Assembly (NCBI GenBank): GCA_039621445.1
Contig: CP154954.1
Span: 2,232,001 to 2,296,000 of the forward strand
Source of the DNA: Euglena gracilis
Taxonomy: Eukaryota
DNA: 64,000 nucleotides
Reading direction: 5' to 3'
Positions within the stretch are counted from its first letter, which is position 1; each line of letters begins with the position of its first letter. Below are positions 11,095 to 44,954 of this stretch, piece by piece. The notes below the pieces were generated by a model, which ran no database searches, had not been told where the DNA came from, and saw only the letters and a list, made by a program, of their open reading frames with translations. The position numbers were made by a program, and so were the translations under genes.

Positions 11095-11400
11095 TGTGCC
11101 ACCTGTGGCCCAAAACTGGCCACCAGTCGTTGCCCAAAACTGGCCACCATGTGTGGCCCAAAACTGGTCACCATCTGTGGCACAAACCTGGCCACCATAT
11201 GTGGCACAAAACTGGCCACCATCTGTGGCACAAAACTGGCCACCGCATTTGGCCCAAAACTGACCAGCATCTGTGGCCCAAAACTGGCCACACATTGGGC
11301 CTGAAACTGGCCCCTACATCTGGCCCAAAACTGGCCACCATCTGTGGCACAAATTTGGCCACCACCCGTGGCCCAAAATTGACCACTGCCTGTGACACAA
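11095..11400. repeat. 24-bp minisatellite (CCAAAACTGGCCACCATCTGTGGC-like)
   Basis: Tandem 24-bp units; same family at 14200-14400, 37435-37580, 43950-44160, 50825-51500 and 53150-53345. Confidence 0.9.
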
Positions 11401-11541
11401 AATTGTTCAGCACTGTTTTTTTTTGGACAAGGACATTTGTTGAACAGCAGAAAAAGAAGGCAACAAACAAAAACAAGTCTCATACCAATTGAAGCGTGCT
11501 GACTTAATAAACATTCTCCAGGTAACATGACTTCAGGTGAT

Positions 11542-12109: not shown

Positions 12110-13596
12110 CTGTCCATCCTATCGGACGTTGCTACGGCTGACCGTGCCCTGACCGGACTTCACCACGGCCTAGGTCAACTGGGCTGCTCTTTGAACTTCG
12201 CCAAGACCACGCCCTGGGCCCTGGGACACGGCACATGCCTTCCCTCCCCGAGGATTCCGTACTGCGGCGGGCATCCGTCATCCCAACCATATATACACCA
12301 GATTCCGGCGTCTCGGTCCTGGGTGTCCCAATTCACCACCCGGCTTCCCGTGGCTTTGTTCGTCAGCAGTTAGACAGCTGCATCTCCAAGAATGAACAGG
12401 CCTGCACCTTGCTGGGCTCTGTACGCGACCCGCAAGTACAGCTGTCCTTGCTTCTTTTCTGCCTCGACGCTTGCAAGTTCAGCTCACTGCTTCGCAGCGC
12501 TCACTGCGTGCCGTTCACTGACCTCCTGTCCCGTGCGGACAGCTGTCTCCGGTCCACCTTCCAACAGATCCTGGATTGCTCGGTATCATACACACAATGG
12601 GCCCAGGCTTCCCTTCCCCTACGCCAGGGCGGATTCGGCATACGGTTATCCATCGACAGCGTGCTACCTGCCCGTCCGAGTGCCCTGTTGTCATGGATTA
12701 CCTGTGCACCATCCTCCTTGGGTTTGGGCAACATCTCACGGGCCCCGATTGATGGACTGCCCGAATTTCTGTCCGGTCTACAGATACGACTGGGTGACGC
12801 CTTTGAACCAGTGCGGAAATGGATCGGGGAGAGTTCCTTAAGTCCCGAGGACACTTCCCACCATGACCAAGCTTGGTGGAGTGAACAGCTCCGCCAGGCC
12901 GCACGTCCGGCATTCCTGTCTGCCCTAAATGACCGGGACCGTGTCCGCTTTGAGCATCAAAGTAATTCTATCTGCTCAAGCTGGATCGGTGCCCGCCCAT
13001 CCAAGGCTGCAGGGTTTGCCGTCGACGGCGCGTCTTTCCGCCTCATGATGAAGACTGCCTATCATCCCCCTCAGCCTGGCCGGTTCCCCCGGCCCCCTCG
13101 GCTGCGGGTCGTTGATCCTTTTGGGGACCACGCTCTGTGCTGCCACAAGAATAAATTGTGGGAACGCCACCACAGAGTACAGCACTTCCTTTGGTCCCAG
13201 CTACAGGCACGGGGTACTCCGCACGCCTTGGAAATCTCGGTGGCCGCCGATCAAAAGAGGGGCGCGGACATCTTCCTTCCCCATTGGTCCGGCGCTGCGT
13301 CCTGGGCCATCGATGTGGGCATCAACCACCCCTCTCCGCCCAGTGCCAGTTGGAGCCTCCCCGCCTCGTGGGAATTACTTCGCAGCAGAGCACTTAGGAA
13401 GACTACCAAATACGGAGGCCGCTGCCAAACCCGAGGTGCGCGATTCTCCCCCATGATCCTTAGTGTATGGGGTTCCTTCGGGGGAGAGAGCCAACGTGTA
13501 CCGGGGGTAGCCAAAAGTCGTCTGGCATTAAAGGCCGACCGGCTTTTACCCGTGCGGTTTTATGTTGCCCCCTTGCCCTCCACCCGTCGGGCTTAA
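12110..13596 (+). pseudogene. 5'-truncated CRE-like retrotransposon: RT C-terminal part plus RLE endonuclease
   Basis: LNFAKT, VLGVPI, FCLDACK, SLPLRQGGFGI, DPFGDHALCC, RGADIFL..WAIDVGI; other copies at 24144-24813 and 51695-52541. Confidence 0.85.
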
Positions 13597-13779
13597 TCCC
13601 GCCCCCCTCCCCGGAGGGGTACGACCGGTTTTATTCCGACCCTGCTATACTCCGCACCCAGCCCTTGCGGTAAAAAAGTGAATCAGTGAAAGTGAGTCGA
13701 GGCACGCAAGTGCTCACCGTTCACCGAGGCCGTGGGCCGGGCTTTACCGACGCCTCTCGCGGTCTCCCCCGCCAGGCGA

Positions 13780-14150
13780 CTAAAATTTTCGACTCACGGG
13801 GGCTGAAGATCAAGATTTTCGGACCCGGGGGGGGGGGGCTGAAAATCAAAATTTTCAGTCCCACAGGGGGGGGGCTGAAAATTGAGATTTTAACTCTCAC
13901 GGGGGGGCTCAAAAAATTTTGAGTCTCGGGGGGGGGGCTGAAAATTAAAATTGTCAGTCTCACGGGGGGGGGGGGGAAAATTGAAAATTTCAATCCCACG
14001 GGGGGGGGGAAAATTTAAATTATCAGTGTCACGGGGGGGGGGGGGGGCAGAAAATTAAATTCTTCAGTCTCACAGGGGGGGGGCAGAAAATTGAAATTTT
14101 CAGTCTCAAAAAAAAATGAAAAAATAAAAGCACGGGGGGGGGAGGGCTGA
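13780..14150. repeat. Tandem ~35-bp G-run repeat
   Basis: Units like GGGGGGGCTGAAAATTGAAATTTTCAGTCTCAC; duplicated at 52725-53100. Confidence 0.8.
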
Positions 14151-15445
14151 AAATTACCTGTGGGACAAAAAAAGGCACCGCTGGCACCAAACCGATTCCA
14201 AGAAGTGGCACAAAACTGGCCAAAATATGTGGCCCCAAAACTGGCCCCTGATGCAGCACCAAACTGGCCCCAAAATGTGGCCCCCTCAGATGTGGTACCA
14301 AACTGGTGCAAAAATGTGGCTCAAAAACTAGCCCCAAGATGTGGCACGAAACTGGCCAAAGATGTGGTTCCAAACTGGCCCCAAAACTGACCACAAGATG
14401 TGAATGTGAATCAAAAAAACTGTAAAGCAAATCACCAGATCACCATTACTGCAAACAAAATGGACAGACAAACAAAAACCTTCGAGTTTCAAGGCACAGC
14501 AACAGGAATCAGAAAACATAAACGACGGCCATTCCCAAGAAAAGGGAGCAGCCCGTTCTCCACTTCACCGCTCTTCTCTCTGCACATCGCACATCGCATG
14601 CATCTATTTGGGGCAGTTTTGGGCGACTTTGGCCCAAATGGGCCGCCGGTCAAAAATGGTAGATTCCACACTTACCCCCCCCCCCCTTATTGTCCCACCG
14701 ACCTCCCCCCGGGAGGCCCGACCGGACAAGATGGGGGGGACAATATGGGGGTACCAAAGGAATTTCATTGGCCGGACAAAAAAAACCCCCCCGTCGGCCG
14801 GGGCCGAGGGACAATATTGGGGGGGGGGGGTATGAAGCCATGTTACCCATCAGTTGAAAGCTCTTGTCAATGGCTTTCGACAGATGGCCACGGGATTCGG
14901 CCATTATGCACGCAGCTGAAAATTAGCGATCGTGCATTCCAAATTTGACCACTATGCCCAGCATAGCCAAGAAAAAAGCATTTTTTTGGGCAAAAATGGC
15001 CCAAAAAATGGCCAAAAATGGCCACTTTTTGGACCCGAAAAAGGGCCGTGTGCCGCCCGCCGGCCGCCCTCGGACCCCCCTCCCCCTTTCCCCCCCCCCC
15101 CCCCCCCCCGCCCCCCCCCCCCCCCCCCCCCCCACCGTTTCTCCTTTGGTCATACCCGGAGAGGGTGAAATTAGGATTAGTCGGTTAAGTCAAGTCAGTT
15201 GAAAGGGGACACTCTCAATTGGGCAGATGAAAAAAATGATAATGTTTTTTTATCAAATTGAATGAAATTTTATCAAATTTTCACAAGCGTCAAACATTGA
15301 ATAAGATCGGCACTTCGGCTCCCGTTTTTGGGCCGAAAGCCATCTGAGCACCGTCGGACGGCTGGCCGGCTGGCCGGAGGGGGGTCTTATTTAAATGGGG
15401 GGGGACCCCTGCGACGAGGAGTCAAACTTGAAATCCAACAAGAGA

Positions 15446-15712
15446 CGGTGGTGGGGCGAACCGAATCCACCGACCAGTGGCACAGCCTACTGGATTTGAG
15501 TGTTCAGGGGGGAGGGAGGCTATGTACAGATGGGGGAACCCCATGGATAGTCAGAGGGGTTAAGCAGAGGCTGAAGGGACTTTAGTGGCCGAGGTTCCGG
15601 GACGGGAAGGTGATGTGGACCCTTAATGTTGTGGGTCGTGGGGGCAGGGATGGGTTGGCCAAGGGCCAGGTCATAGTAGGTGGGTTTTCCTCGTCTTGTC
15701 GACGCGACGAGG
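15446..15712 (-). mobile_element. Short 3'-end fragment of a CRE-like element
   Basis: Contains the conserved 54-nt terminus (15446-15499) and a 3' UTR similar to 43320-43472; duplicated at 54409-54675. Confidence 0.75.
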
Positions 15713-16243
15713 AGTGGGGAGATTCGGATTTTCACGGTGGGTGGGCCCGGGGCACGGTCTGGGTGAAGCTGTGCTACCCACCGTGATTCCGCATCACGGT
15801 GGGTAGCACAGCTTCACCCAAACCGTGCCCCGGGCCCAGGGAAACGTCTCTTTTGGCCCTCGCCACAAGAGGAACCCCCTTGTGACTCCCTGTGCCGCCA
15901 CAGGTCGCGGGTAGATTATACTGTGGGTGAAATGTACAAAGGAGCCGAGTGAACTTGTTGTGGAGGTCAGTGGTTAGCGGAAGATGAGCAAAGGTCACCT
16001 TCAATATATATTGGGCGGGGAGGGGGGCGTGTGTACCGCTTTTGCCACAGGGGCGTGTTTGTGTCGGGTTTTGGCTTTTGTTGTGTTTTGCTTCTCTGCG
16101 TGTGTATGTGATATGTGACCCATGGATTTGTCTTTGGCTCGGCGTGTGGCTCTGCTCAGCTCAGGGGATAACTACGGGTTAAAAACTTGGCAGGTGAGAG
16201 TTCAAGGTTGGTTATTTGGTTGAGAGTTTGTGCTCAAAGGCCT

Positions 16244-19200
16244 TCAGACAGAATAGGGTGAGTGGGCAGAAGACAGGGTGATCTCATCTTTGGAAGAATA
16301 CAAGCTCCAAACGAGCTGTCTGCTGATTTCTCTGATAAGTGTGAAGGACAGGCCTTGCCAAATGTCTGCTTCTGCGGCCCGCCGCTGCCACCCTTCCCGC
16401 TGCCCCAGAAGGGCCTTGAGGAGGGTGGCCATCAAGGAGCGCGCTTCTTGTCCCATGCCCCCATAGCAATCCATGACGAATGGCGTCAACCGCCAGCCCA
16501 GTCGTTGGCATGTTGCATCATATTTGGCATGCTTTTCGGCCTCCTGACGTGTTTGCCATTGTGAAAGGCTCTCTGCACTTCGCAGCGGATGACTTTGCGC
16601 AAGGGTGTGGCGGATTGTCACATCCACTGCAACGGGTCCATCACTGTCCAAGCGAGGAATGAAGATATCCCCAGGCTGGGAACGGTCATCAGCTCGTTGT
16701 TCTTTACGGGCTGTAAATCCTGCCTTCTGTGTTGTGGTTGTCAGAAAATCTTGTACCGCCCCGTGCCGCCGGGTGATGAAGTTTGATTTGCAGCAAACGA
16801 GGTGGTGTCCGAGAAAATCTGATTGTCCAAAGCATTTGGGACAGAGGTTGGGATCGGATTCCATTGGTGTGAGAGTCATTCCAAGGGACCAACGAAGTGT
16901 GCAGCGGAATTCAGCCGTGGGCAACAGGGTGCGGAGTCCTTGAGATGGTGTCAAAGCGGCCCATGCCATAGCGTGTGGTTGGCATTGGCTTGCAAAGCGT
17001 ACAGCATCAGGTCCATTCAATGTGTCCCGAAGTGTTTTCTGGCGGGCAAACATGGTCTGCTGATTCCACCAACGTTGTGAATTGTGTGGAGACTGTGCCT
17101 GAGGGATCAAATTTTTGTCAGTGGCCCATTGTGGCAGTGGGGCTATTTGACCAAGTTCATTGAGGGCTGCCCGTAAACAATCATCAGTGTCTTTGGGAAG
17201 GATGTCCAAGGCAGCGGGCAGGCCCAAGACAGAGGGAGCTCTTCGACAGAAGTCCACCACTTGAGACAATCTGGCTGGCACACGTTGAAATAGTGGATCC
17301 GAGATCCCCAGTCCACCGCATCTGATGGCCAGGGAAACTTGCAACCATTCTTCTGGAGTGCAAGGGGAGCCGACCATGCCACTGAATGTTTCCCGAATAC
17401 CACCACCCCCCCCCCCTAATTGACCGTGGGACCTCTCCACGGGACCCCCCTTTTGGTCAATTAGGGGGGGGTGTCAATTAGGGGGGGGTACCGTCAATTA
17501 GGGGGGGGGTACCATCAATTAGGGGGTGCTTCAGCACGGAATCCCCCCGGGTAGTCAATTAGGGGGGGGGGTCGAAAAAAATTTTCCCGGGGCGATCGGT
17601 CAATTAGGGGGGGGGGGGTCAATTAGGGGGGGGGGTGGTGGTAATTCCCGACAATGTCTTGCATGCCGCTGTTGCAGAGGTGATTTTGCAGGCGCGCAAG
17701 AGGTCATTCACTTTGCAAGCAGATAAACAAAAACGAAGCAAGGTGAATTGCACATGCGATTGAGGTAGGTGCTGAAGTACTGTGCAAGAACGTCGGATGT
17801 CTGCAATGCGCTTATTCCAAACTTCGTCACAGAAGCGGTCATCTTGGGGGTGGTGGACAGGGACCCCCAAAACTTTCAAACCAGAACCAGCAACAAAGGC
17901 GGTCAGTGGTATTTGATGTAAGGGGCTGTCGTGTGGCGTGCCAGGTCTGGGAAGGCAGACAATGGTTTCCACAATACAGCTTGCTGTGTTGGGCGTAGCA
18001 CGAATCCAGTCAAGGGCACACTTCTGGGCATCGTCTACGGATGGATTGCAGGATTTTTTCCCGTGACAAAGAGTTGAAGGCATTCCTGAAATCCACTTGA
18101 AGCAGCCCCCAGCGATTGTCTCTGTCTGAGTGCAAAGTGTCCACCATTTGTTGGATTCCCATTGCGATCAGTGGACAAGCATTCGGCACACCAACGCCAC
18201 ATTGTGGAGGACTCAGTTCTTTCAAAGCGTTTACCACTGTGGGATGACGCATGAGGCATTTGCCAACCAATCGGCGAAGGGTTTCACCTGCTGCGATTGG
18301 GCGAGTGTCTTCATCACACACCGTGTTCTCCACAAGGTTTCCAAAAGCATCCTCTTCCATTGCTGTTTGTTTGTACTGTTTTCGCAGAGGTGTCAACCTG
18401 GCTGAGGAAAGAATTGGGGCCATGCCGGGGTGAACACCGTTTGTAATTGCCCGACAGATGAAGGTATCCAGCACCTCGAGGAGGTCATCTCCACAAGCCC
18501 CTGGGTAGTCTCCAACCATGGCCTTGAGGTGGTCAGGTCTCAGGCCAGAAGGACCCGGTGCGGATTCCTTTGGGAACCCGAATATGGCTTTGCGCAAATT
18601 TTGCAATCGTTCTTTTGTGCTTTCTGGGTCCGAAGGAAAGGTGATCGTTTGGGAAGGGTCGGACACCGGGATGCGCGGTGGAGGCTCTGGTGGGTGAAGG
18701 TCACGCAGCCTTTGAATCACTTTTGGGTCATTGCTGTTCTGAACCCCCCTCAGAGGTGAGCTCTCGGCAGGCTTTTGAAATAGCCCCGTGGCCAACAAGG
18801 CTTTCAATGCGGGAAAGGAACCGTTCTTCGGTGGCCTTGGCAGCGAGTGCTGTTTTTTGCCTTGTCTGTCTGCCTTGTGGCTTTTGTGGGAGACTGGAGT
18901 CCAACCAAGAATCAAACACATGACGGGTGAGATACAGGCGAGCTCGTTCTGCAATTTTTCTCCCCACCATCGCCCAGTTCGATCGCCCGCCACGCTGCAA
19001 AGGACAGAGCACCGCTTTGGGGAAGGCCCACAAGGCGTGCAGGGTTTCCCAGCCAGGTTCCCTGTTGAAATGCCTCAACAATTGCAGGTAGGTTTGATTG
19101 ACATTCAGGAGGGCTCCACGCGGCAGGTATACAAGGGTGCCCCGATCATCAAAAGAAATTTCCTCAAAAGTGGGATGAAGGGATGGTGGGCATGGAGCAG

Positions 19201-19830
19201 AGAATGGCGTAACCCCGGCAATGTGATTTTGGCCAATGGGGGTTGGTGGGGGTCTGGCTGGGGCTGGTGACGATGCTACTGCGGTTGTTGCCACCGAGGT
19301 TGGTGGGGGTCCCGCGAGGGCTAGTGACGATGCTGCTGCGGTTGTTGCCACTAAGGATGAAGAGCTGGCACCCAAAGGGAGGTTGGAGAAGTTCAGGAAG
19401 GGCGTCGCCTGATTTGCTTGCATCCAAATGGCCCCAACATCTGACGGGGGGAAGGGTCCTGGTCCTTGTGTGCCAATTGGGTTCTCCATGATGACCGTGG
19501 AGCACATTGAGGGGAGGCCTTGTTGGCCAAAGAACAATGGACCCGGCAGATTTGGGAACCAAGATCCCCTTTCCAATGGTGGCACTGCGGGTGGTGGTGC
19601 GGATGGGGGGATGGAAATTTGTGATGCTGGCGCCATGTCAACGTCCTCACCCGACACCGAAGGGTGCTCTGCGGGCGGTGGTGCAGTAGGAGTGATTGAG
19701 GTTTGTGATGCTGGCGCCATGTCAATATCTTCACCCGGAACAGATGGTGGGGTTGTAGGAGCCCGGGGTTACTCTCAATGTCCCCACAGGTCAGTAAAGA
19801 CCGACCTCGGCCTGCCCCTCCCGATGCTGG
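16244..19830 (-). pseudogene. 2A-RT-RLE polyprotein, frameshifted, catalytic RT core deleted
   Basis: GRGRSLLTCGDIESNPG (~19762-19815); LWAFPKAVL, APGPSGLRPDHL, RPIAAGETLRRLVGK, LQVDFRNAFN; QQGDP-YLDD segment missing near 17950; CPKC..GHHLVCC, QPGDIF..VAVDVT. Confidence 0.88.
17399..17642. mobile_element. MITE with 3-bp TSD (AAT)
   Basis: TIR ACCACCACCCCCCCCCCCTAATTGACC; TSD at 17396-17398 and 17643-17645; removal restores the LSGI|RET reading. Confidence 0.9.
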
Positions 19831-20896
19831 TAGGGTAGGCTGTGTGCTGTCTTTCGCAGAAACGTAAGGCAGCAGCACTTTTATTTGTGTCGCCGACGTT
19901 GGGTGGTTTCTTCCGGTCAGCGGAGACGGAACCTGGGGGTTGTCCGGTTTATTTTGCTGAGGTGGGAAGGTTGCAGCCCAGTAGAATCCGGCAGAACTGG
20001 CTGGCTGGGGGGCCAATGTTGCAGACCAAAAAGTGGATGTGCTGTCTGGGTGGGGGGCCACTGTTGCAGTCCAAAATGTGGAGGAACATGGTTTGCCAGT
20101 TTGTCGGGGGCTTTTCAGGCTGAGAGCAAAAATGGTGTCAGGGGGGGGGGGCTTTGCAGGCCCATGGCCTTTGCAGGCCACTGGGACAAAATGCTACAAC
20201 AGGACAAAAAGGTGTCATAGGGGGGCCTTTGTAGGCCCAGGGCCTTTGCAGGCCACTGGAGCAAAATGGTGTTGGAAGGGGGCCTTTGCAGGCCCAGGGC
20301 CTTTGCAGGCCACTGGGGCAAAATGGTGCAACAGACCGAAATGGTGTCACAGGGGGGCCTTTGCAGGCCCAGTGACTTTGCAGGACACTGGGGTAAAACG
20401 GTGTCACTGAGGGGTTGTGGTGGCAAAATGTTTTCCAATGTCAAGTCAAAACTGCTGCAAAGTGTCACTGAGGGGTTGGGGTGGCAAAATGTTTTTCAAT
20501 GTCAAGTCAAAACTGCAGCAAAATGTGTCAGAGCTTTTGGTGTAACATGTGCTGTGAAAACTGGGGGTTTGCCACTTCAATTGATCAGAAGTTTGGGATG
20601 CAATGCAGAACACCGAAAAGAAGACACTGGAGCTGAAAGTTCCACTTAATGGTTGGCAGATGGGGGGCCTTTGCAGGCCCAAAGGGGGGGGCCTTTGCAG
20701 GCCCAAAGACTGGGGGGGCCTTTTCAGGCCCAGGGTCTTTTCAGGCCAGTGGCCAGTGAAGGGGCCTTGTAAGGCCCTGTAGCAGGGGGGGCCTTTTCAG
20801 GCCCAATACAGCCAACAGCAGCATGGTGAAGTTCTGCAGCAGCAAGACCAATAAGGGCTGAGAAGCCCAAGGACTTGGGTTCTTGAATGTCTTGTC

Positions 20897-21989
20897 TTAA
20901 GTCCGCTTTGTCAGCACCAGGCCTCAGGACAGAGTCTGTGTTGTCAACACAGGACTCAGGGGGGGGGCCTGAGTCCTGTGTTGACAACACAGACTTTGTC
21001 CTGAGTCCTGTGTTGACAACACAGACTTTGTCCAAAGGCACAAATGAGAGAGAGAAATCCAAAAGCCATTGAAAAGCAGCCAATGACCATAAAATTGGTG
21101 GCAGGTGGCGTTCCCGACCGTTTCTTGTTTGGCCTGCAAGTTTTTCATGGTGCCACTGGTCACGTTCAATGCTGGCTTTCCATCGTTGTGTGTTTGAAGC
21201 TCAAAGTTGCCAACGCGAAGTTCCAACAACGAATCTGGGCGGTGGCCCAGTTGGAAAGCAACCAGGAGCAAATTTAGGCGCTGCTCTTCATAGCATGACT
21301 GGAAGTTCGTTTTGTCATGCAACGTGACCAGTTCATCATCCGTCAGCACAGCGACTGCCTCCTTGATGGCCAAGTTTGTCCGAGCACGAGTGTAAGATGC
21401 ATTGAAAATCCGACAAAAATTTGGAAATTGAATTTGTGCACTCGGAACGATTCCAGACGCCGGCCGTGTTTGTTTGTACATGAGCGCCAGTGCGTTCACG
21501 TTAGTCTTCAACGTTTGTGGGCTCCACTCACGCACGGGAACACCTGCTGCGGCACACAAATTTCTTCTTTGCACCAAGGCAGCATCTCTCTGAGCAGCGT
21601 CATCAAAATGGAAGATCACCGCCAGTGTAAATTTGGCAAATGCAGCCATCCAATCGTCCAAATTGGACAAAATGCAACTCTGGTAGGCCAAAACCTTCGC
21701 AAAATCCTTGGCGCGTGATAAGATTTTTTTGATTTTTTTCTGTTCCCGCAGGGAGTCCTGGTTGCTCGGCAAAGGTGTTGCCAAACAACGCGGCGTCGGC
21801 CGGGGGTGGACGTGTGAGGTTTTGGGCCTGGTCCAAAGCGGCCAAAAAAACGTCCACTGGGGGTAATGCAATTGTGCTGCCATCATTTTGTGTGGCCTGA
21901 AGAAAAAAGCATTGGTGATATATGAATCATCCGAGGTTAATAACACAGACTCTGTCCTGAGGCCTGGTGCTGTTACAAAGCGGACTTAA
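20897..21989 (-). mobile_element. Crypton-like element carrying a truncated tyrosine recombinase
   Basis: ~46-bp inverted repeats beginning TTAAGTCCGCTTTGT at both ends; internal ORF with LTDDE...RLNLLLVAFQLGHRPDSLLELRVGNF...TMKN, resembling YR box I plus catalytic Lys. Confidence 0.6.
21110..21886 (-). pseudogene. Tyrosine recombinase-like protein, C-terminally truncated (no HxxR or Tyr)
   Basis: Part of ORF 20924-21946; motif LG.R...L..L. Confidence 0.55.
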
Positions 21990-22117
21990 AGAACTGTGTT
22001 AACAACACAGACTCTGTCCTGAGTCCTGTGTTGACAACACGGACTCCGTCCTTCGGACGGAGTCCGTGTTGTCAACACAGGACTCAGGACAGAGTCTGTG
22101 TTGTTAACACAGTTCTT
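21989..22117. repeat. Perfect palindrome, 63-bp arms and TTC loop
   Basis: Arms are exact reverse complements; built from the same GTGTTGACAACAC units as the adjacent inverted repeats. Confidence 0.95.
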
Positions 22118-22313
22118 GGTGTAGAGCTTGTACGTTTGACTTCTGGTATTGCACTTGTACTTGACTTCTGCCTGCACCAGCAGGACTTCAACTTCTGCCT
22201 GCACCAGCAGGACTTCTTCTGCCTGCACCAGCAGGGCTTGTGATCGATGATAGTTGAACTCTTGGCTTGGTTTGTCCCCACCAGGGGCTTTCAATTGTCC
22301 GCCATGTATTATG

Positions 22314-22338
22314 CGAAAAAAAATAGACACTCAGAAGT
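22314..22338 (-). other. Euglenid spliced-leader exon copy
   Basis: Reverse complement ACTTCTGAGTGTCTATTTTTTTTCG; not followed by a GT donor. Confidence 0.85.
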
Positions 22339-22342
22339 CAGA

Positions 22343-22466
22343 AGTGGGGAGAGTCCTACCAGGATCGCATTTAGGATTTGCGTACTAAGGGTGTTTCCTA
22401 ACTTTCATGAACGAGCCCCACACACACACAAGCACACACAAGCCCACAGACACCCACCCACCCACC

Positions 22467-22512
<46 letters not shown>

Positions 22513-22906
22513 GACAAAAGGGCCCACGCCCCTCAGGGCAAGGCCAGCGAGAAGCGAAGTGAAACCAAAGAGTGACTGGCGGGTGCAACGGCTCGCGGTG
22601 ACCCGTCCCGACGGCAAAGAACAGCACGCCGACACGGGCGACGCGCTCGCACGGGCGACGCACGGGCACGACACGCGCGAGACATGTGCGAGCCGTGCCG
22701 AGCCGTGCCGAGCCGTGCCGAGCCGTGCCGAGCCGTGCCGAGCCGAGCCGAGCCGAGCCGTGCCTAAAAATTTTTTTTTCATGAACGGAAAATGAAAGGA
22801 AAGGTCTCACAGATTTTATCTTTCTTTCATAGCATTTTTCACGAACTGCACCACCCTAGTCCGATTTTCCTCTATTTGGCTTAAAAAGGGGCGGCGTTAT
22901 CGGAAA
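22343..22906. repeat. Repeat with (CA)n and 10-bp satellite (GCCGAGCCGT)n
   Basis: Copy at 54676-55281; inverted partial copy at 30979-31306. Confidence 0.9.
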
Positions 22907-25071: not shown

Positions 25072-26190
25072 GTGAACCGCGCCTGGACTCTTTGCCTCCC
25101 GCCCTCCCCAGCCCTGTGCCCTGCCAACAAAAGGGGGGGGGCAGAGGTGATTCCGGTGCAGAAAAAACCCCGGACGACCAACCCACCCAAAAAGCCAACC
25201 CCTACCCCACAAATCGCCAGAATCCTGGAAAAACTCAGGAATCTTACCCCCCGGGACAAGGCCGAGCTCTCACAGGTGGTGGCAAAAAATCAGGCAGACC
25301 GAGCCGCCCGGGCAAAAAATCGCCCCCCGCCAGCCAGCCCGCTGACAAATGATGTGGTGGATGCGGACGACTGGTCCGTCCTCTCCGCCACCGAAGAATC
25401 CATCGCCGGTGAGTGGGCCGGTAGGGCACGTAAGTACAAGAAGCCTCTCGTAAGGCAATGGCTTACAGAGGTGCAGACAGCCGTACCTACTCCCCCGCCC
25501 TACGCTCCGGGGCGCACGTGGTCGGACCTGGGTGATGACGACGTCGAGCTCATCCTGTATTGCCTTTGTGCTTCGGAGGCCCGGCGGAAGGAAGGGGGGA
25601 AAGCCTGCTGGGGCATTTCAGGGACCAATCTGCTTTTCCTTGCCCGGGAGAGGGAAAACCATCGGAACATCCTGAACTGCGGCGACATCGAGCAAAACCC
25701 TGGACCATCTCCCATGGGGCCAGCGAGCCAGCCGCACCTCCTCACGCCGGATGAGGTTTGGGAAGAAGTCTACTGGAACCGCCAACGCTGGAGGTGGGCA
25801 CGGATCCGCCAACCAGCCATAGACGGCCCGTCGTCTGCCTCGACCACAGCTCCTCCTCGTCATGAGGGGAGAGAATACGCCAAGTGCCTGCTGTGCGGCG
25901 AATTCTTCGGCCTAGACTCTCTTCCGGCACTGGAGTCGCACCGATGCCAGACGGGCGAACAGGTGGGAAATATCTTCTCCATCCCATCAGTGAGGGAGGA
26001 TTCATGGAGGTGGGATCTAGAGCATCTGGAATCCTTGCCAAATGGAGAGTGGTGGTCGATCCGATGCAAAGTCTGTGGGTGGTCGACAGAGACACCGTAC
26101 CCTTCACCCATTGTGGAGCACCTACGCACCTGCCAGCCACCTTCTCTGTCCGACGGTGAAGAGGAGAGCAGCGACGAATGGGAACGATGA
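25072..26190 (+). CDS. Polyprotein N-terminal part: 2A peptide plus two CxxC...HxxC zinc-finger-like motifs
   Basis: RNILNCGDIEQNPGP (core 25681-25707); CLLC...HRC and CKVC...HLRTC; acidic tract continues in the next frame. Confidence 0.7.
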   Translation: MNRAWTLCLPPSPALCPANKRGGAEVIPVQKKPRTTNPPKKPTPTPQIARILEKLRNLTPRDKAELSQVVAKNQADRAARAKNRPPPASPLTNDVVDADDWSVLSATEESIAGEWAGRARKYKKPLVRQWLTEVQTAVPTPPPYAPGRTWSDLGDDDVELILYCLCASEARRKEGGKACWGISGTNLLFLARERENHRNILNCGDIEQNPGPSPMGPASQPHLLTPDEVWEEVYWNRQRWRWARIRQPAIDGPSSASTTAPPRHEGREYAKCLLCGEFFGLDSLPALESHRCQTGEQVGNIFSIPSVREDSWRWDLEHLESLPNGEWWSIRCKVCGWSTETPYPSPIVEHLRTCQPPSLSDGEEESSDEWER

Positions 26191-26557
26191 CGACGACGAC
26201 AGCGACAGCGGCGACCCCAGCGGCCGGAGCCCTGGCTCGTTCACCCCAGCCGACAGCAGCGGAGCTGCAACCTTGGTCGTGCAACCCCAGACACCGGCCG
26301 GGGCCACGGACCTTGGCCTATTAGGTGGCAGACACTCGGCGCACGGTAAACTCCACCATCGCACACCCGCCCCACTCCCATCCCATCTGCCCGCTGCGCC
26401 ATGGGGCTCACAAGACGCCCCGAGAGGACGGTCCACCACCTCCAGACACCGTGGACACGCGGCCGGCTGCTACCCCATGGGGGCTTCCCCACGGGCACAG
26501 AGCGGCAGGGGCGCAGATATCCTCACTACGGGAGACGTGGAGAGCAACCCAGGCCCC

Positions 26558-27000
26558 ACCAACGCCGGGCGGGTTTCTGCCGACCCCTCCCTCCCGGCGC
26601 CGCGCGAAGACTTTATGCTGGACCCGCAGTGGTTCAATGCGGTGGTACGGGCACTGTCGCCCCATAACCCGCCCACCATCGACGCCTTCGCCGACTACAA
26701 CAACAGTCAACTGGATCACTTTTGGTCGCAAAGGGATGATGCCTTCCTCCAGAACTGGAACCTGCCAAACCCTCTGTGGTGCAACCCACCTTTCTCCCTG
26801 CTCCCCCGTGTTTTGGAACACGTCCTCCGCCAAGGGGGCAACATCATTCTCCTTGCACCGGAGTGGTCCACCGCACTAGCCGCCCTGCGGCGCATTTCCA
26901 CGGACTATTTGACCTTGCCGCGGTGCCCTATCTACAGGGCCCGAGGGACAGCGCTACTGCCGGCTCCCGCATGGACGACCACTGCCCTGCGGATCTGCCA
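26558..27000 (+). CDS. N6-adenine DNA methyltransferase domain (phage Dam / DIRS MT type) within ORF 26042-28405
   Basis: EDFMLDPQWF...TIDAFADYNNSQLDHFWS..DDAFLQNW...LWCNPPFSLLPRVL...IILLAPEW; SAM-binding motif followed by NPPF at 26783-26794. Confidence 0.85.
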
Positions 27001-27547
27001 CTCAGGCAGCAACCCCTCATGCGGCGCCCTGCTCCCACCGGGCCTCCACCATGGAGCCGACAGCCGGCAACGCCTGCCACGCCATGCGTGCGCCCCTTAC
27101 CCGCTCGCACCGCTCCTCTCCCCAGGGCAGCAGCGCCTTGTCAGAGCACGTCGATCCACCCATGGCGGCGAAGTCTTCCACCTCGGGGATTACGCCGGCC
27201 GGACGTTCCTTGTCTACCATAATGCCCTTTGGGACATCCGGGGTCCCTCCCCCCGTTGGTGCCAACGCTGTGGGTTGTGGCAATGGCCATGGGACTGCCC
27301 CACGCTACTCCCCCAACATTTCGCCGCTCCCAAACCACCACTCCTGCGCCCAGCTTTCCGGTTGACCCCCACTCCTCACTCCCTCCTCCACAAGCCACGG
27401 GCACCACCGGCTCAAGAGGCTGCGCCCATCTCCCTGCCAAAAAACGGCCTTGGTAGTCCACCCACGAGCGGCGTTCGCGTGCGGAGGGCACACCGCGGAC
27501 GAGGCAGCCTCCTCACCTGTGGCGATGTGGAGGAGAACCCGGGGCCA

Positions 27548-30500
27548 GCCAAGCGCCCGGCCCCCCTGTCACCTCGCGGTGCACCGGCCGCGGCAGATGC
27601 CCGGGACCACGACCACCTCTTCTTGGACCTGGCTCACCCAGAACACGACGCCGCGGTGGTCATTGATAACGCGGGGCAGGAGTCCAACCTCCGGGGGCAG
27701 CCCGCGTACAACCTTGTCGTGGGCCCTTCCCCATGCGACATCACCCACGTACTACAGCAAAAAATCCCAACCCTCATTCACCTTCCCTCCGCCTGCCAAC
27801 AACCTGTCTTTGACACCATGGCAGATGTCATCAACACATACGCACTCGCACCCTCAGACGCCGCTTTATTCGGCGTGCTCTCCTTCCCAAAGCTCGTCCT
27901 CCGGCCGGCGTCAACCACGAAACCGCCCCCAGCAGCGGAGCTGGAGTCCATCCTGATGAGGCGCACCAAACTATTCCGCGAGGGAGACTACACCACCCTT
28001 TTGACGGAAGCACTGAAGGACACGCAGACACGACATTCCATCGTAGAAACCAGGGCGGAAAAACGCTCCAGAACACGGCCGACTGCCCTCAGTGAGGCGA
28101 TAACGAGACGGGTACGCACCCTCACTGCAGAAGGGGCGTCCGCGAAGGCAGTCCAAATACTGCTCTCCGAGGGCGCGCACCAACCAGACGACCCAGACGT
28201 CTGGGTTGCCCTGGAGAAGCTGCATCCTGCCGGCATAAATGTCGACACCAACCGCCTCCCGCGACACATTAGGCCATTCCCTGAGAACCACACCCCGCCC
28301 GGAATGGGAGGACAGGCTGAAGGAGGCCATCCGCCGATTCCCGCGGGGATCTGCACCCGGACCGTCTGGACTGCGGCCCAGCCACCTCCAAGATTGTCTG
28401 CGTAGGCCGGGCCGGGGAGCAAAGCTGATCACTGCCCTGGCGCGGCTGACTCAGGTTTGGGTAGACGGCCAGATACCACCGCACCACGCTGCGGCCTGGT
28501 GCTGCGCGAATCTGACACCTCTCCGTGAGAAGGACAACGGGGTACGACCGGTGGCGGTTGGGGAAACCATTCGGCGCCTGGTGGGGAAGACGCTGCTCCA
28601 GACACGAAATGCCCGGTCTGAGGTGGCAACACTCGCCCCCACACAGGTCGGGGTAGGGGTACGAAACGCGGCCGAAGCCGTCGCCCTGGGCATGCAACAC
28701 CTCGTCATGCAGCTGGGGGATACCTCGCCCTGGGTTTCCCTCCAGGTGGACTACTCCAACGCTTTTAACACATTGGACCGCGGCGCGATCCTCACAGAGG
28801 CTGAGACACGCACCCCCAGCCTGTACAATTTCCTAAGGTTTGCATACAGTGGGCCCGTTCCCCTTTTCTGTGGCGGCCGTTCCATCCTGTCACAACGGGG
28901 GACACACCAAGGCTGCCCTTTGGGCCCCATCGGGTTCGCCCTGGCGCTGCAGCCGCTGCTGGAGCAGATTACCAGGGACGGCCAGCTGCTATGGAACAGC
29001 TGGTACCTGGACGACGGCCTGCTGGTCGGGACCCCGGACAGGATTGAACACTGCCTACGTTTCCTACTGCAAGAGTCCCACCGTGTAGGTCTGGGCCTCA
29101 ACCTGCAAAAATGCGTCATGTGGGGCCCGGGAGCGAGGAGCACGCCCAGCTGTGACAGAATGCAAGTAGTCCCTTGGGCACAAGGGGAAGGTATCACCGT
29201 CCTTGGTATCCCAGTTGACCACCCTGCGTCCTCGGACACTACCAAGACAGCGTGGGAAGACGCCGCCGCCAAAATCGAAAAGGCCTCCTCTACCATTACT
29301 GCCCTGACCGACGCCCAGGTAGCGCATCACCTGCTCCGGAGCTGCCTGGACGGCTGCAAGGTGAACCACCTCCTGCGTGCGTCCAACTCATATGGCAGTC
29401 CAGACCAAGTAAGGAGCTGATCGGAGGTGATCATGAACGCCTTCGAGGATGTTCTGGGCACTTCGCTGAATTCGCAACATCGGACCCAGGCCTCGCTGCC
29501 CCTATCCAGTGGCGGCTGCGGCCTCCGCATTCCGTCCTACACTCAGCCTGCAGCAAGGATCTCCTGCCTCGCAGACTTCTACTCCGATGGGGCCCGGCGA
29601 GTGGGTGTGCCCGACTACGCAACCGGCCCGCAACTGTCCCTTGTCACGCCCGCATTGGACGACCTCAGGGGCAGGCTGGGAGCGAATCATGCCACAGTTA
29701 CCGCTTTCCTCAACAACCCACAGCGAATTGCCTCCGCGGACCAAGAACCACGGAAACAAAAGTGGTGGAACCATGAGCTGGGCAAGAAGGCAATGGACGA
29801 CCTGGTGGACCAGGCCCGGCCCCGGGACCAGAACCGCCTCCTTGAACAGGCCACGGGGTTTGGACACGGCTGGATGGCGGCTACCCCCTCGCACAACTCC
29901 CACACCACCTTCTCCAGCGAGGAATACACCCTGGGACTGAAATGGTGGCTGGGTCTCCCGGTTTTGAATGACATCAGCCAGCCGTGCACAGGATGCGGCC
30001 AGCCCCTGGATAAGGAAGGCGACCACCTCCTCTGCTGCTGCAGGAACAACTTCGCAACCCGCCACAACGCTGTTCAGGAGGCCCTATTTTAAACCTTGTC
30101 CAACAGCGGGCAGCGGGTGCAGAAGGAGGTTTCACTCCCGACGGCCCGAGACAGCCATCTCCGCCCTGCGGACCTCCTCCTGGACTGCTGGTCTGAGGGG
30201 AAGCCGACGGCGCTGGACGTCACCGTCTGCCACGGTTGGCAGGCAACAGAACACGCCGCAACCCGGGAACGCTGGAGATCCTTCCTGAAGAGGAGGGAGG
30301 ATGCCAAAAAGCAAAAATACAACATCCCATGTCAGCAAGCAGGGTGGGGCTTCACGCCTTTCGCCCTTGGCACATGGGGCGGCATGGGACCGGAAACGGC
30401 CAAGACACTAAGCAGAGTCGCCAAACGCGCCTCGTCCTGGCAACAGGGCGCCGAGCGCGAAACCAAGGAGGCGGAAACATACCAAAATGTGGCCATCGCC

Positions 30501-30551
30501 CTGCTCCGAGAGGTATTCCACCTCCTACAACCCAAGCACTTACTTCGTTAA
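27548..30551 (+). pseudogene. RT-zinc knuckle-RLE module (frameshift ~28300, stops at 29418 and 30088)
   Basis: APGPSGL, LQVDYSNAFN, GTHQGCPLGP, WYLDDG, CTGC..GDHLLCC, RPADLLL..ALDVT. Confidence 0.92.
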
Positions 30552-31360: not shown

Positions 31361-34300
31361 TCACCTCGGGCGGGTGCACTGGATGCGAATGGGGCCGACT
31401 AGGGTCCCATCCTCGGCGTGACGCACTCTTTGCCATCCTTCCATGTCCACCGCCGCCACTCCGGTGGCTCCTTGTATGCTCCTGGTTCTCGACGGCATCT
31501 CTTGCGGCGTGGCTGTTGGAGGTAACTCCTCTTGCCCTCTGGTTGTAGCGGCGGCAGAGAGCTGTTCCGCCACAAAGGCCATCAAGGTTGCGGATATACG
31601 TTGCCAAATGTCTGCGGCCATGTGCTGCCTTGCCCATCCTTGCTTGTCACCAAGGGCTTGCTTCACCAGACGGCCAAGGAGACCAGACCCCAATGGGCCC
31701 AGGCCTGACCACGGATGGAAGGACAGAGGGCTGAATAACCATCCTGCGGCTTCACATACCGGTTGGTTCTTCGTGACCTTCTTGTGTTCCATTGCTGCCA
31801 TGTTCTTTAAAGCAATAATCTCGTCCCACGACAAATCTTTCCGGAGGGGGTGGAACACTACGAGGTCGACTGCCAACGGCCCCACAGGGTCAACCCCTTG
31901 TAGGGCGACATCCGCTGGGCGCATCTTCCCACCGATGGCCACCTCTGTCTTGGTGTGCACACCATGTTCTCTGAGGACCATTGCCAGCGCGTCCCGCACA
32001 GCGTTGTGACGTTGCACGAGTTTGTTCTTTTTGCAGCATAGCAGGTGGTCCCCAAAGGGATCCATGGAGTCCCCACACAGGGGGCAAGGAGCACCAGACG
32101 AGCCCGGGAGGACCTTGGCGCCGAGCCACCATCGGAGGAGGAGGCGGTACGGTACTTTGTTGCTGGGATTTTGGTTCCCATGCCTTTGTTTGGTATCGTT
32201 TGGAGCCAGGCGGTTGTATGGGGCATCGATTGCAGTCGGAGGCGGCATTTGTCTCGTTGTGGCAAGATGTTCTTCAAAGCTTCTTTCCTTGCTTGGTGCA
32301 CTTTGTCTGTCCACCATTGCTGCCTTCTGTGGTCTTCTTCAACGTCCGATGGTTGATTCTTCTCAATCCAATCTGGCAGTGGCTCGAACTGAGGGCCGAG
32401 TGTGCCACGCGAGATCCACGGCCACCTTCTTGAAATCAGGGGGCAAGGCGCAGGCCTCGGGCGGAAACCGTAACATTTGTGACCGCTGTTGTGCACATAG
32501 AATCCCTGCCATTCTGGCCGGTGCTTGGAGGACGAGGGGATCCTTCACCCCGAGGCCGGCCATGCGTAGGGGGAGTGCACACTGTGTCCATTGTGCATCA
32601 TTTGATGCCGGCTGGCCCATGATGTCATCCCAGGTCTTCCGGATGATCCGCGCCGCTGCTTGGATTGGCTCCTGTAGGGTGTCCATGTTCATGGTTCGTA
32701 GGAAATGCATCACCTTGCAGGCATCAAGACAATATCGCAAGAGCACATGCTCAACCTGAGGATCTCCCACGTTGGTGAGGACGTGACATGCTTCTTGGAG
32801 CTTGTCCACTGCCCCTTGCATCTCGGCTTTGCGGAAGGATGTTGAAAGTGGGTGTTCCACTGGGAAGCCGAGGACCCGCAGCCCGTGGTCTGGCATCCAC
32901 GGTACCCGCGGAATTGATCGCAACAAATCGAAATGGCTTCCATTTGATGTCGGTGTCTGTGCAGGACCCCACAGGCGGCATTTTTGGAGGTTGAGATGCA
33001 CGCCAAGATGTGCAGAACTCACGCTGATGGATGCCAATGCTGCCGCCAAGGTGTCCATGGAACCCACCAGGTGACCATCATCCAGATACCACACGTTCAT
33101 CTTCAAATCTTTGGGCAGCGCCAGGACCACATCTTGCCACGCCAATGCAAAGAAGAGGGGACCCAAAGGGTCTCCTTGCTGCACTCCTTGCTCACTCGTC
33201 ATTCGGTGTCCATGGTTGTAGAGGGCGGAGTGCTGAGCGTAAGACAAACGTGCCCATGCCTCAAGCTCTGGGGCCCGAATGCGTACTGCTTTCAGGAGGG
33301 CTTGCCGGTCAATTGCGTTGAACGCGTTTTGTAGGTCCACTTGCAGGATTGCCCATGCATCTCCTTGGCCGTGTTCTGCAAAGGATTGCACCCCTTGGGC
33401 TATGGTCTCACAAGCCCCTTCGGTGGTGACTCCACATTGATGCGGGTGCAGCTCTGATGCCCGTTGCTTGACACACGGTGAGGTCATGGCGAACTTGCCT
33501 ACAAAGCGGCGGAGGGTGTTCCCCACTGCAATGGGGCGAATGTTCAGACTGTCATTGGGGCCGTCCTTCCTCAATGGAATCAAGGTGGCCGATGAGATGA
33601 AGGGCATTGCTTGTGATGGCAGTGACCCTTCCAGGGCCGCTTTGGAGAACGTGCGCAGCGCTGCCAACACCATTGCCGCTGCACCGGCGTCCACACGCAC
33701 TACATCCTGGAGGTGTTGGGGTCGGAGTCCATCAGGGCCTGCAGCGGCTGCTCTTGGAAAAGAGAGTAACGTCTCACGGAGAAACTTATTCAAGTCATGC
33801 TGCTCTTGAGAGGATTCCTCCTTCGGGAATGGAAACACTTTGGAGACAGGCTCCACAAAGATGACTTCTGGCCTTCTTGGATGCAGGTCTCTGAGCTTTG
33901 CCTGCACCTTGTGGTCCAACGGATCGTGCAACCCATCAGACATGAGATGGCGCACCGCCTTGCCAAATGCTCCATCTTCCATCAAGCCCCGCAGCGTGTT
34001 CAGGAATGGGGCTTCCTGCAGCCTGTCCACTTTGTCCTCTAGGGATGGGGATGCCGTGCTTTTTTGCTTCTTGCGGTCCGGCCGAGGAATGCCTTGGCGA
34101 AACTCGTCCCACAAAGAAGCCAGGTCACCTGCCTTGAAGCGATCAACTCGTGATCTGATGAGTTGGGCGGCTTGTCCCTTGTGGCCCTTGCCACCTCGAG
34201 GCGACCAGAGGGTCACCTTTTGAAACAGGGCCCAATCTCGGAGTGCCTCCCACGATCGTTCAGAGCAGAGGCGCTGTTGCAGCTCAGCCCAGGCCACGCC

Positions 34301-35827
34301 CCACAATGTGACAGCCGCACGCGGGATGTGCCGGAACAGGGGCCTTGTGGTGGACAGAATCTCGTGAATTGCTGATGACATAAGCGCATTTGGGGCGTCC
34401 AATGGTGTGGATGGAGGCATGTGGTTGCTTGACGATGAGCTCGCGGCTGCATGGGCCGGTGGTGGGTGGCTTGCCGGCGGGAGACGGGTTGGGGTGGAGT
34501 CCGGTCGCACACGGTAGCAATTCTCACTTGCACACCGTTTGCCTTCTGGGAGGAGCTTGAGGCAATGTCCACACACCCAGCGTTGTGCGTCCCGCAACCA
34601 AGCAGACGAAGGCATCTCTCCTGCGGCGACGTGGACCATTGCTACATGGTTTGTGGCGAGCCGCTTTGTGTTCCATCCTTGAAAGCTGTGTCGGAGGGAC
34701 TTGCAGCAGTGAGGAAACGGGCAATGGAAAAGGCCTGGGCCCTCTTCCTCGGAATCTGAGGAATCTGGACCGCGTTCTGCTCTTCGCTTACGTGCCCGGT
34801 GGTTTGGTCCTGCTGATGCGGAAGCTGCGGAGGAGGCGGACGGTGGTGGAGGCGCCAGGTTGATGACCGCTGCTGATTGATTCACCGCCATGAAAGCTGC
34901 CCCTGGATCTGAAGGCGAAGTCGGCCCTGGATTTGACTCGACATCTCCATCATTGCAGAGGTCCCGCATCCATGAACTTTGTGCTTGAAATGAGGACACT
35001 TGAAGACCTGGATCGCAAATGTGGAACCATGGAGGGAAAGCCAGGGAGGGGATGGAAAGGGGACGAATGGGGATGGGAGATGGGGGCGAAAGGTAGCTCG
35101 GGATCGTGGCGATTGAGGTTGGTGGGCGAAAGTGAATGGTGGTGGGTGGACCGTGGCGGGGACGGGGTTGGGCGCATCTTGGGGTGGGAGGGGGGGGCGA
35201 GCCAGCAGTGGGGACTGCGGCAGCACCATGGGGAGGGTCAGGCCCGCCCGGGCTCACCGAGGGAGAGATCCTTGGTGGCGTCTCCCTCGGATCCTCGCCC
35301 AACGTAAACCCCGTCACGGTGGGGGCCAGCCTGCTGGTGCTTTGGGGCGCTGGGGGGGACGGGTCCGCGGGATGGCCAGCAGAGGGGACTGCGGCAGCAC
35401 CATGGGGAGGGACAGGCCCGCCCGGGCTCACCGAGGGAGAGATCCTTGGTGGCGTCTCCCTCGGATCCTCGCCCAACGTAAACCCCGTCACGGTGGGGGC
35501 CAGCCTGCTGGTGCTTTGGGGCGTTGGGGGGGACGGGTTCGCGGGATGGCCAGCAGTGGGGGCTGTGGCAGCACCATGGGGAGGGACAGGCCCGCCCGGG
35601 CTCACCGAGGGAGAGATCCTTGGCGGCGTCTCCCTGGGATCCTCGCCCAACGTAAACCCCGTCACGGTGGGGGCCAGCCTGCTGGTGCTTTGGGGCGGTG
35701 GGGGGAATGGGGCTGCCCTCGGGGGGGAGGCGCAGGGAGACTCGCCCGGGCTCACCGGGGGTGGGATCCTTGGTGGCATCACCCCCGGGTCACGGCCCTT
35801 GCTACTCACTGGTTGGGCGCATCTCAT
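31361..35827 (-). pseudogene. CRE-like retrotransposon polyprotein: Pro-rich repeats, 2A, zinc fingers, RT, RLE (frameshifts near 32400 and 32190)
   Basis: DLCNDGDVESNPGP (34922-34948); CPFPHC...HVAMVH; AAGPDGL, LQVDLQNAFN, GVQQGDPLGP, WYLDDG; CPLC..GDHLLCC, RPADV..LAVD. Confidence 0.92.
35205..35700. repeat. 174-bp (58-aa) in-frame tandem repeat, about 3 copies, upstream of 2A
   Basis: QSTSRLAPTVTGFTLGEDPRETPPRISPSVSPGGP repeated. Confidence 0.9.
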
Positions 35828-36877: not shown

Positions 36878-36888
36878 CAACTTTCTGA

Positions 36889-38181: not shown

Positions 38182-38196
38182 TGAGTGCTCGGTACC

Positions 38197-38222
38197 TCTT
38201 TCTGAGTGTCTATTTTTTTTCG
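38197..38222 (+). other. Euglenid spliced-leader exon copy
   Basis: TCTTTCTGAGTGTCTATTTTTTTTCG, 25/26 match to the Euglena SL as I recall it. Confidence 0.88.
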
Positions 38223-44929: not shown

Positions 44930-44954
44930 CTTTCTGAGTGTCTATTTTTTTTCG
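44930..44954 (+). other. Euglenid spliced-leader exon copy
   Basis: CTTTCTGAGTGTCTATTTTTTTTCG. Confidence 0.88.

Follow-up and report, generated by a model that had tools for sequence, protein, structure and literature searches.

We analyzed a 64,000-nucleotide stretch of DNA deposited under Euglena gracilis (contig CP154954.1, positions 2,232,001 to 2,296,000; hereafter, the window, with positions counted from its first letter), which is densely filled with members of one retrotransposon family, and centered the analysis on a member that carries the spliced leader (SL) of Euglena at its 5′ end. This focal element is a minus-strand insertion of 6,620 bp (15723-22342) that lies between two copies of the 10-mer AGTGGGGAGA, which form a target-site duplication (TSD) at 22343-22352 on its 5′ side (as read on the plus strand) and at 15713-15722 on its 3′ side. 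The 10-mer has exactly three copies in the window, and the third, at 54676-54685, marks an empty site where a single copy is present with no insertion and no SL. In a self-BLAST, the left flank (12750-15722) paired with 51695-54685 at 97.9% over 3,005 columns and the right flank (22340-22906) with 54673-55281 at 92.8% over 609 columns, so the second locus (3.6 kb) is a paralogue with one 10-mer and without the insertion. Direct reading of both loci showed 100% identity over the 113 bases left of the insertion site, and the first 100 bases to its right differed by one substitution and by the length of a CA repeat. A first-pass annotation of the window had described a 6.6-kb minus-strand insertion between 10-bp repeats, together with a duplicate locus lacking both insertion and SL, and the alignment of the two loci upheld this description. 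The target itself lies in the 3′ untranslated region (UTR) area of an older minus-strand family member, whose 3′ motif lies at 15445-15549 and has a duplicate at 54408-54512. The self-BLAST of the window displayed no long terminal direct repeats at the element.

The same annotation had pointed to one way in which this picture could fail, namely that the site is "empty" because 6.6 kb was lost there between chance 10-bp repeats. Such a deletion is formally conceivable, and nothing more speaks for it. The lost segment would have to coincide exactly with a whole retroelement, SL head and family-specific 3′ terminus included, a second family member (copy 2, described below) has the same architecture with an unrelated 9-bp TSD, and in shuffled sequence the 10-mer had a mean of 0.12 matches, with three reached in 1 of 100 shuffles. 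We thus rejected deletion as extremely improbable.

In its own sense, the focal element opens with a stretch of four bases (tct-G; 22339-22342) that separates the TSD from SL base 1 and is followed by ACTTCTGAGTGTCTATTTTTTTTCG at 22338-22314 on the minus strand. From base 1 onward, this sequence matches 25 of the 26 bases of the E. gracilis SL as printed in PMC6242988, ACTTTCTGAGTGTCTATTTTTTTTCG, and is one T short in the TTT run; a primer listed in PMC5654406 shares the SL core. The 21-base core was found three times in the window, against 0.00 occurrences expected by chance. Its identification as the host SL is based on identity with the SL published for Euglena and with SL RNA genes of euglenids in public contigs. 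The SL is followed by the start of the 5′ UTR (22276-22313, minus strand; CAT..CATGGCGGACAATTGAAAGCCCCTGGTGGGG), which is conserved with copy 2 and, unlike the SL RNA intron, does not begin with GTAT.

The SL head was not confined to the focal element. Copy 2 (38197-43493, plus strand) starts with one T and SL bases 2-26 (25/25), which lead into a 5′ UTR and an interrupted open reading frame (ORF) with its reverse transcriptase (RT) at 40004-43081; its 3′ motif ends at 43473 and is followed by a 20-nt tail, and the element is bounded by a perfect 9-bp TSD, CTCGGTACC, at 38188-38196 and 43494-43502, a 9-mer that occurs only twice in the window. Copy 3 (44930-50198, plus strand) likewise starts with SL bases 2-26 (25/25), ends with the 3′ motif at 50198, and has an intact ORF of 1,403 residues (45650-49861) with a 2A peptide (GDVEANPGP), an RVT_1 domain, a YLDD motif, and a CCHC finger with a restriction-like endonuclease (RLE), which makes it a candidate active element, as judged from its sequence. 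Its 5′ UTR is broken by an insert of ~360 bp (about 44965-45325) with CACATG on its flanks. The proteins have diverged: Relative to copy 3, identity over the RT and RLE is 42-50% for the focal copy and 29.5% for copy 2, although copies 2 and 3 both match SL bases 2-26 at 25/25. The sequence directly past the SL is nevertheless held in common within pairs, as the focal copy and copy 2 share their first ~40 bases (86% over 65 columns including the SL), and copies 3 and 4 share their post-SL UTR (80% over 81 columns). In copy 4 (plus strand, head at 50200, within 50199-50300) and copy 5 (minus strand, head at about 38012, within 37935-38012), a decayed SL precedes a recognizable family type of 5′ UTR, and it follows that genomic SL heads drift once they are unselected or inactive. 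All five recognizable 5′ heads in the window thus carry an SL or a decayed SL.

A search of the window that allowed up to six edits returned no further convincing SL, and two more elements, at 25651-30533 and 31517-35014, had none within six edits; they are probably 5′-truncated or belong to another subfamily. The first of these carries a 2A peptide of its own (NCGDIEQNPGP, 25680-25705) and a Dam-like stretch (26594-27001). In four heads, a short upstream ORF (M-A/S-D-N/K...) begins directly past the SL (22290-22305, 38230-38245, 45330-45358, and 50224-50235) and is followed by a conserved small stem-loop (CCCC/GGGG or GGGC/GCCC). This 5′ UTR stem-loop was predicted in four of the five heads, with a folding energy no better than that of shuffled sequence.

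The junction downstream of the SL discriminates between ways in which it could have come to head an element. An exact scan of public metagenome contigs for the SL core yielded nine matches in eight contigs. Eight of the nine matches run on into GTAT(A/G).. with an Sm-like AATTTTTGG/A site and have ACA(C)(T/C)TT in front of them; by these sequence features, we regard the eight as true euglenid SL RNA genes. All eight read ..TTTTCG|GTAT, whereas all three window copies with an intact SL head read ..TTTTCG and then pass directly into element UTR (SL|CATAAT.., SL|TTCGCATAT.., and SL|TCTCCACATG..). Because UTR follows the SL directly in three of three copies, the junction corresponds to a trans-splice junction, and a junction that is exact to the exon implies that the SL arrived on an RNA template. 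In two copies, moreover, the TSD lies 1-4 bases from the SL, which therefore represents the 5′ end of that template. That the SL was present on the RNA template is, in our view, very highly probable, and the first-pass claim that it came in with the element on its RNA gained further weight from the exon-exact junction, the two additional SL-headed members, and the two decayed heads. Heads of this kind also occur elsewhere: two of ten public SL-core matches, L003 in the metagenome set and L009 as the sole match in prokaryote-labeled contigs (SL at 789-816), continue with non-intron sequence rather than GTAT, so SL-headed retrocopies occur in euglenid DNA outside the window. In L003 (minus strand, 812-832), a frame that begins at an ATG a short distance past the SL is open for 264 codons, up to the contig end, and has no Pfam match.

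In the window, no SL RNA gene was found, as none of the three SL cores is followed by GTAT and no Rfam family matched. Since intron bases are lacking, we ruled out that transcription ran from an SL RNA gene into an element residing in its intron and that the RT jumped onto whole SL RNA; a jump onto an unrelated mRNA was ruled out by the shared UTRs. The last two candidates are forms of a broader explanation, in which the RT switched from an SL-less element RNA to SL RNA or to an unrelated trans-spliced mRNA. R2-type RTs do jump between templates, and tail-to-head junctions of family members at 36868-36889 and 50198-50216 are of the kind that jumping would leave. A jump to SL RNA, however, would bring along the intron with its GTAT.. 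and Sm site, none of which is present, and a jump to an mRNA would bring a foreign UTR, whereas the post-SL bases are family specific and common to the focal copy and copy 2 as well as to copies 3 and 4. We accordingly regard template switching as very unlikely to be the source of the SL heads.

The machinery behind the insertions was assigned by way of relatives, as none of six focal ORF fragments matched Pfam (0/6). With a C-terminal frame of 409 residues, public assemblies yielded relatives that are 42-55% identical, 19 with nearly the same length and 6 that are longer. Among the long ones, P0020, P0024, and P0025 encode polyproteins with three or four 2A peptides, GDVE(S/A)NPGP, in which 2A-separated modules are followed by RVT_1 and then by the conserved C-terminal domain; their N-terminal modules vary and comprise an SLBP-type RNA-hairpin-binding domain (E 2e-13 and 2.6e-20) and a weak Dam-like methyltransferase match that lies under the Pfam cut-off. 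RVT_1 itself was matched by copy 3 (E 3.5e-12) and by six of six scanned relatives. Searched against PDB, an RT-RLE profile built from nine family proteins returned R2 proteins first (E 8.7e-8; L1 ORF2, 0.82), and a weak third stretch of the profile aligned the CCHC finger, RH, KPD, DVTV, and K..KY to the R2 endonuclease. In an alignment of 27 sequences, the columns C..C..H..C, RH, RPGD, (V/I)D(V/I)T, and K..KY were invariant or nearly so. From this alignment, the C-terminal domain of copy 3 (246 residues) was modeled with AlphaFold2 (AF2; pLDDT 83, pTM 0.81), and a Foldseek search with the model placed R2 proteins in the top seven positions (E 4e-6 to 1e-3), followed by Prp8 and archaeal Holliday-junction (Hjc) resolvases. 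Judged by its sequence profile and modeled fold, the family is an R2-like, RLE-type non-long terminal repeat (non-LTR) retrotransposon.

Its layout is one polyprotein ORF with variable N-terminal modules and 2A peptides, then RT, CCHC finger, and RLE, and a structured 3′ end. At six sites in the window (five exact and one with one mismatch), the 3′ end is ..CCCACCACCGT, to which a short tail of non-A bases may be added; none of the six has a poly(A) tail. Given such a structured 3′ end without poly(A), the SLBP-like module of the relatives is suggestive. At the gathering threshold, no Rfam family, including ribozymes and the R2 element, matched in the window. The family is large; it has 704 cluster representatives at E<=1e-30, a number that rises to 4,157 at E<=1e-10. 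In the ESM Atlas, the RT-RLE part met only unnamed RVT_1 clusters. Relatives with flanking DNA were found neither in prokaryote genome contigs nor in viral contigs. The family probably resides in a Euglena genome.

We also gave the 40-base flanks of insertions a score for their likeness to the SL, with 20,000 random 40-mers drawn from the window as the background. In copy 3, the two flanks each scored 11, a value reached by 0.2% of the background. At 36868-36889, a 5′-truncated member ends ..CCCACCACCG and is followed by CA, then ACTTTCTGAG (SL bases 1-10), and then unrelated sequence; this flank past the 3′ end at 36877 scored 10, reached by 0.7% of the background. The other flanks stayed at background level, with 3-4 for the focal element, 5 for copy 6, 6-7 for copy 2, and 3 for the fragment that ends at 44862. 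The target of copy 2 had been a candidate as well and was dropped, as a score of 7 is reached by 12% of the background and is not significant. Two of six independent insertions in the window thus lie in SL-like DNA, far above chance, and none lies in a true SL RNA gene. In copy 3, the SL-like stretch is found upstream of its own SL, with a counterpart after its 3′ end; these flanking 13-mers match each other at 10 of 13 positions and have in common a C that is absent from the SL, which is consistent with a TSD that arose by insertion into copy 4 at its decayed SL head. The junction at 36868-36889 reflects either an insertion at an SL head or an RT template jump, and more generally the SL-like targets could point to a residual SL preference as in CRE and NeSL elements or to template jumps.

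These targets bear on whether the SL was picked up from the DNA around an element. In such a scenario, master copies would sit in SL RNA genes and use the SL RNA promoter, in the manner of SLACS and CZAR, and the focal copy would be the off-target insertion of such a co-transcript. The RT plus RLE architecture is that of the SL-gene-specific CRE and NeSL clades, and each of the two SL-like insertions lies below 1% of the background. The scenario would, however, need insertion exactly at the exon-intron boundary in three divergent lineages, the GTAT.. bases are present in none of the three heads, and the window holds no SL RNA gene. Copy 3, which lies in an SL-like target, has two SLs in tandem, the partial one of the target and its own (bases 2-26), and its own SL is therefore not target derived. 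We consider transcription from SL RNA genes an improbable origin of the heads.

Taken as a whole, the data are probably best explained by a member of an R2-like family that was copied from an SL-bearing mature mRNA. The domain order, the RLE fold, the target duplications of 9-10 bp, and the SL exactly at the 5′ end are direct results of the analysis. In the mechanism that we propose, the host would add its SL to the element mRNA by trans-splicing, the endonuclease would nick the target, and the RT would prime on the nick (target-primed reverse transcription) and copy the mature mRNA from its 3′ end to its extreme 5′ end, so that the SL, possibly with one cap-derived G, would form the first bases of the new DNA copy. 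Immediately before SL base 1, the SL RNA genes have a C. The focal copy and L009 have a G there, and this G could be a copied cap, for which there is precedent.

Whether the SL stems from trans-splicing of that very transcript, or was inherited in DNA from the parent copy, is a separate question; the first-pass annotation had named both a trans-spliced template and an SL mimic encoded by the element. Where most mRNAs are trans-spliced, a full-length mRNA copy loses the outron and the acceptor site that earned it the SL, and the present family shows this propagation problem in DNA, with three divergent lineages headed by the SL, one of them with an intact ORF. The 25/25 identity of the SL across lineages with less than 50% protein identity favors renewal from the host SL RNA, whereas the propagation problem and the conserved UTR favor inheritance. 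On balance, we lean somewhat toward trans-splicing of the transcript itself. Several observations weigh against this. In an SL-headed copy, the outron is gone and the SL/UTR junction reads CG rather than AG, so a second trans-splicing at the same point is precluded. The relic or shortened heads that an AG inside the SL or the first AG of the UTR should generate were seen in none of the three intact heads, and a source copy with an outron and AG acceptor in place of the SL, which the first-pass annotation had proposed to look for, was not among the five heads in the window. The ~40 post-SL bases conserved between lineages would also fit an internal promoter at a DNA-encoded SL, and the cap-derived G is based on two cases. 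Two possibilities follow: Either rare outron-bearing masters feed the family, or the head is inherited in DNA and transcription starts there.

The second possibility amounts to an SL that was captured once and that, with ~40 UTR bases, serves as an internal promoter or translation signal; transcription would begin at SL base 1, and the head would pass from parent to daughter without new trans-splicing. It would solve the propagation problem, as SL-headed copies have neither outron nor AG, and it accounts for the SL-type heads in five of five cases, including copy 3 with its intact ORF, and for the post-SL UTR (CATG.CGGACAA.. and the small stem-loop) that is kept in the focal copy and copy 2 despite their distant proteins. 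Internal 5′ promoters are, moreover, the rule in long interspersed nuclear elements (LINEs). For the trypanosomatid L1Tc/ingi elements, PMC8190864 reports that their Pr77 head binds TBP and SNAP50. On the other hand, such a head needs purifying selection on all 25 bases across lineages of 29.5-50% protein identity, an identity that trans-splicing yields for free. The junctions (SL|CATAAT and its two counterparts above) are lineage specific, as different acceptor sites predict, the additional G ahead of SL base 1 points to a copied cap and not to a start templated by DNA, and the UTR hairpin folds no better than shuffles. We therefore see an inherited head as a serious but clearly less likely alternative. 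A still more doubtful combination would have the DNA-encoded SL and UTR act as an internal start or translation signal while SL heads are also the preferred landing sites; if true, a single lineage would both carry and target the SL, bridging CRE/NeSL elements and dispersed LINEs, and the dense nesting in the window would be explained.

We compared the family with known systems. The CRE elements (SLACS, CZAR, CRE1, and CRE2) are characterized, according to PMC12278014, by an RT and an RLE, one fixed position in the SL RNA gene, and poly(A). Like them, the family comprises Euglenozoan non-LTR retrotransposons with RT, RLE, and a link to the SL; unlike them, the focal element sits in a target other than the SL, lacks poly(A), and has the SL as its own first bases. 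A fixed insertion in the SL RNA gene was not found, as the focal flank scores of 3-4 are those of the background and the empty site lacks an SL. We set the family apart from CRE by its target and 3′ end. NeSL-1 of Caenorhabditis is an RLE-bearing non-LTR element that targets SL1 genes, and it resembles the family in being such an element tied to SL sequence, whereas the present family carries the SL as cargo and has an SL-like target in only two of six insertions. The first-pass annotation had set the element apart from CRE, SLACS, CZAR, and NeSL; this holds for the focal target, which is not an SL gene, with the qualifications that the RT plus RLE architecture is the same and that two of six insertions lie in SL-like DNA.

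R2 is the best match in both sequence and fold, with RT, CCHC finger, and PD-(D/E)xK endonuclease, and is also alike in its lack of poly(A), its structured 3′ end, and its short TSDs from target-primed reverse transcription. R2 targets 28S ribosomal DNA (rDNA), and a ribozyme frees its 5′ end after co-transcription. The present family differs in that its target is not rDNA, no Rfam ribozyme is found, the 5′ end is set by the SL, and the protein has 2A peptides and variable N-terminal modules. Trypanosomatid L1Tc/ingi elements carry an N-terminal 2A peptide and an APE-type endonuclease. Like the present family, they are LINEs of Euglenozoa, and their 5′ head, Pr77, is conserved and functional (PMC1874656 and PMC8190864), but that head is not an SL, and Pr77-driven transcripts are reported as unspliced in PMC1874656. 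The phenomenon closest to the SL heads is that of the DinoSL-tagged retrogenes of dinoflagellates, in which a DNA-encoded SL marks the copy of a trans-spliced mRNA (PMC6050394, PMC12014239, and PMC3942190). As in these, the SL in three of three window copies ends exactly at the exon end and forms the 5′ end of an RNA-derived copy. The DinoSL retrogenes are, however, copies of host genes, often with truncated relic SL arrays, whereas the present heads derive from the RNA of an autonomous retrotransposon family, and truncated relic SLs downstream of the full SL were seen in none of the three intact window heads.

In the literature on Euglena, on trans-spliced non-LTR elements, and on DinoSL retroelements, our searches brought up no account of a retrotransposon headed by an SL. 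LINE-like RTs are noted in a 2026 preprint on methyltransferase-bearing retroelements of E. gracilis, and the term "spliced leader" has no occurrence in its main text. The family makes two questions testable in Euglena: how retroelements are expressed in genomes with little promoter-level control, and which enzyme makes SL-tagged retrocopies, a question that also arises for dinoflagellate retrogenes. Given its similarity in build to CRE and NeSL elements, which are specific for SL genes, the family may reveal how retrotransposons change between site-specific and dispersed lifestyles. In practical terms, the SL is a built-in marker of a full-length insertion and thus useful for annotating a repeat-rich genome.

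The focal copy itself is decayed, as read from its sequence. Downstream of its 5′ UTR start, it contains a nested palindromic repeat that resembles a miniature inverted-repeat transposable element (21936-22117; 63-nt arms, 100% complementary), and then ORF1 of 299 residues (20990-21886, minus strand), the end of which is cut by a second nested palindromic repeat of the same kind (20918-21039). ORF1 has no Pfam match and no homologue elsewhere in the window, and its relatives in public assemblies are 48-75% identical. Language-model features place it near tyrosine-recombinase, Crypton, and Ndc10-DUF3504-like proteins, which we take as a lead only. Copies 2 and 3 do not have this ORF, and the N-terminal modules upstream of the 2A peptide vary among lineages. 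Degenerate internal tandem repeats (GGCCTGCAAAGGCCCC-like, minus strand) span 20120-20404 and by eye reach about 20860. The 2A-like peptide (19762-19815, minus strand), ..LLTCGDIESNPG-L, reads ..DIESNPG-L with the final P of NPGP replaced, and is probably dead. On the same strand, the conserved N-terminal region and the first half of the RT, through DFRNAFN, are frameshifted (17944-19237), and in the distal part of the RT (17649-18032) the residues corresponding to ~797-861 of copy 3, including YLDD, are absent, so the focal copy cannot encode an active RT and was either mobilized in trans or damaged after insertion. By eye, a third repeat-rich insert lies at about 17400-17650. The C-terminal region (16238-17443, minus strand), with the CCHC finger and PD-(D/E)xK RLE (RPGD..VDVT..K..KY), is 42% identical to that of copy 3.

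Toward the 3′ end, the focal copy forms a hairpin with 46-bp arms (15742-15838, minus strand; folding energy dG -110 kcal/mol, z -13.8), followed by the terminus ..CCCACCGT and GAAAATCCGAA (11 bases; 15723-15741, minus strand) without poly(A), where CCCAC(C)ACCGT is the 3′ end common to the family. The inner arm of the hairpin is native 3′ UTR, as it is shared with a one-armed copy at 1871-1934 (CCCACAACGGT-like end), and the outer arm therefore looks like an inverted duplicate of the native 3′ end. The hairpin thus appears to combine the terminal ~46 bases of native 3′ UTR with an inverted second copy of them, and it may be a snap-back product of reverse transcription. Finally, a satellite with a unit of ~24 bp (GGCCAGTTTTGGGCCACA-like) occurs on both strands of the window at 11099-11416, 37427-37584, 43950-44160, and 50822-51498, often just downstream of family members.

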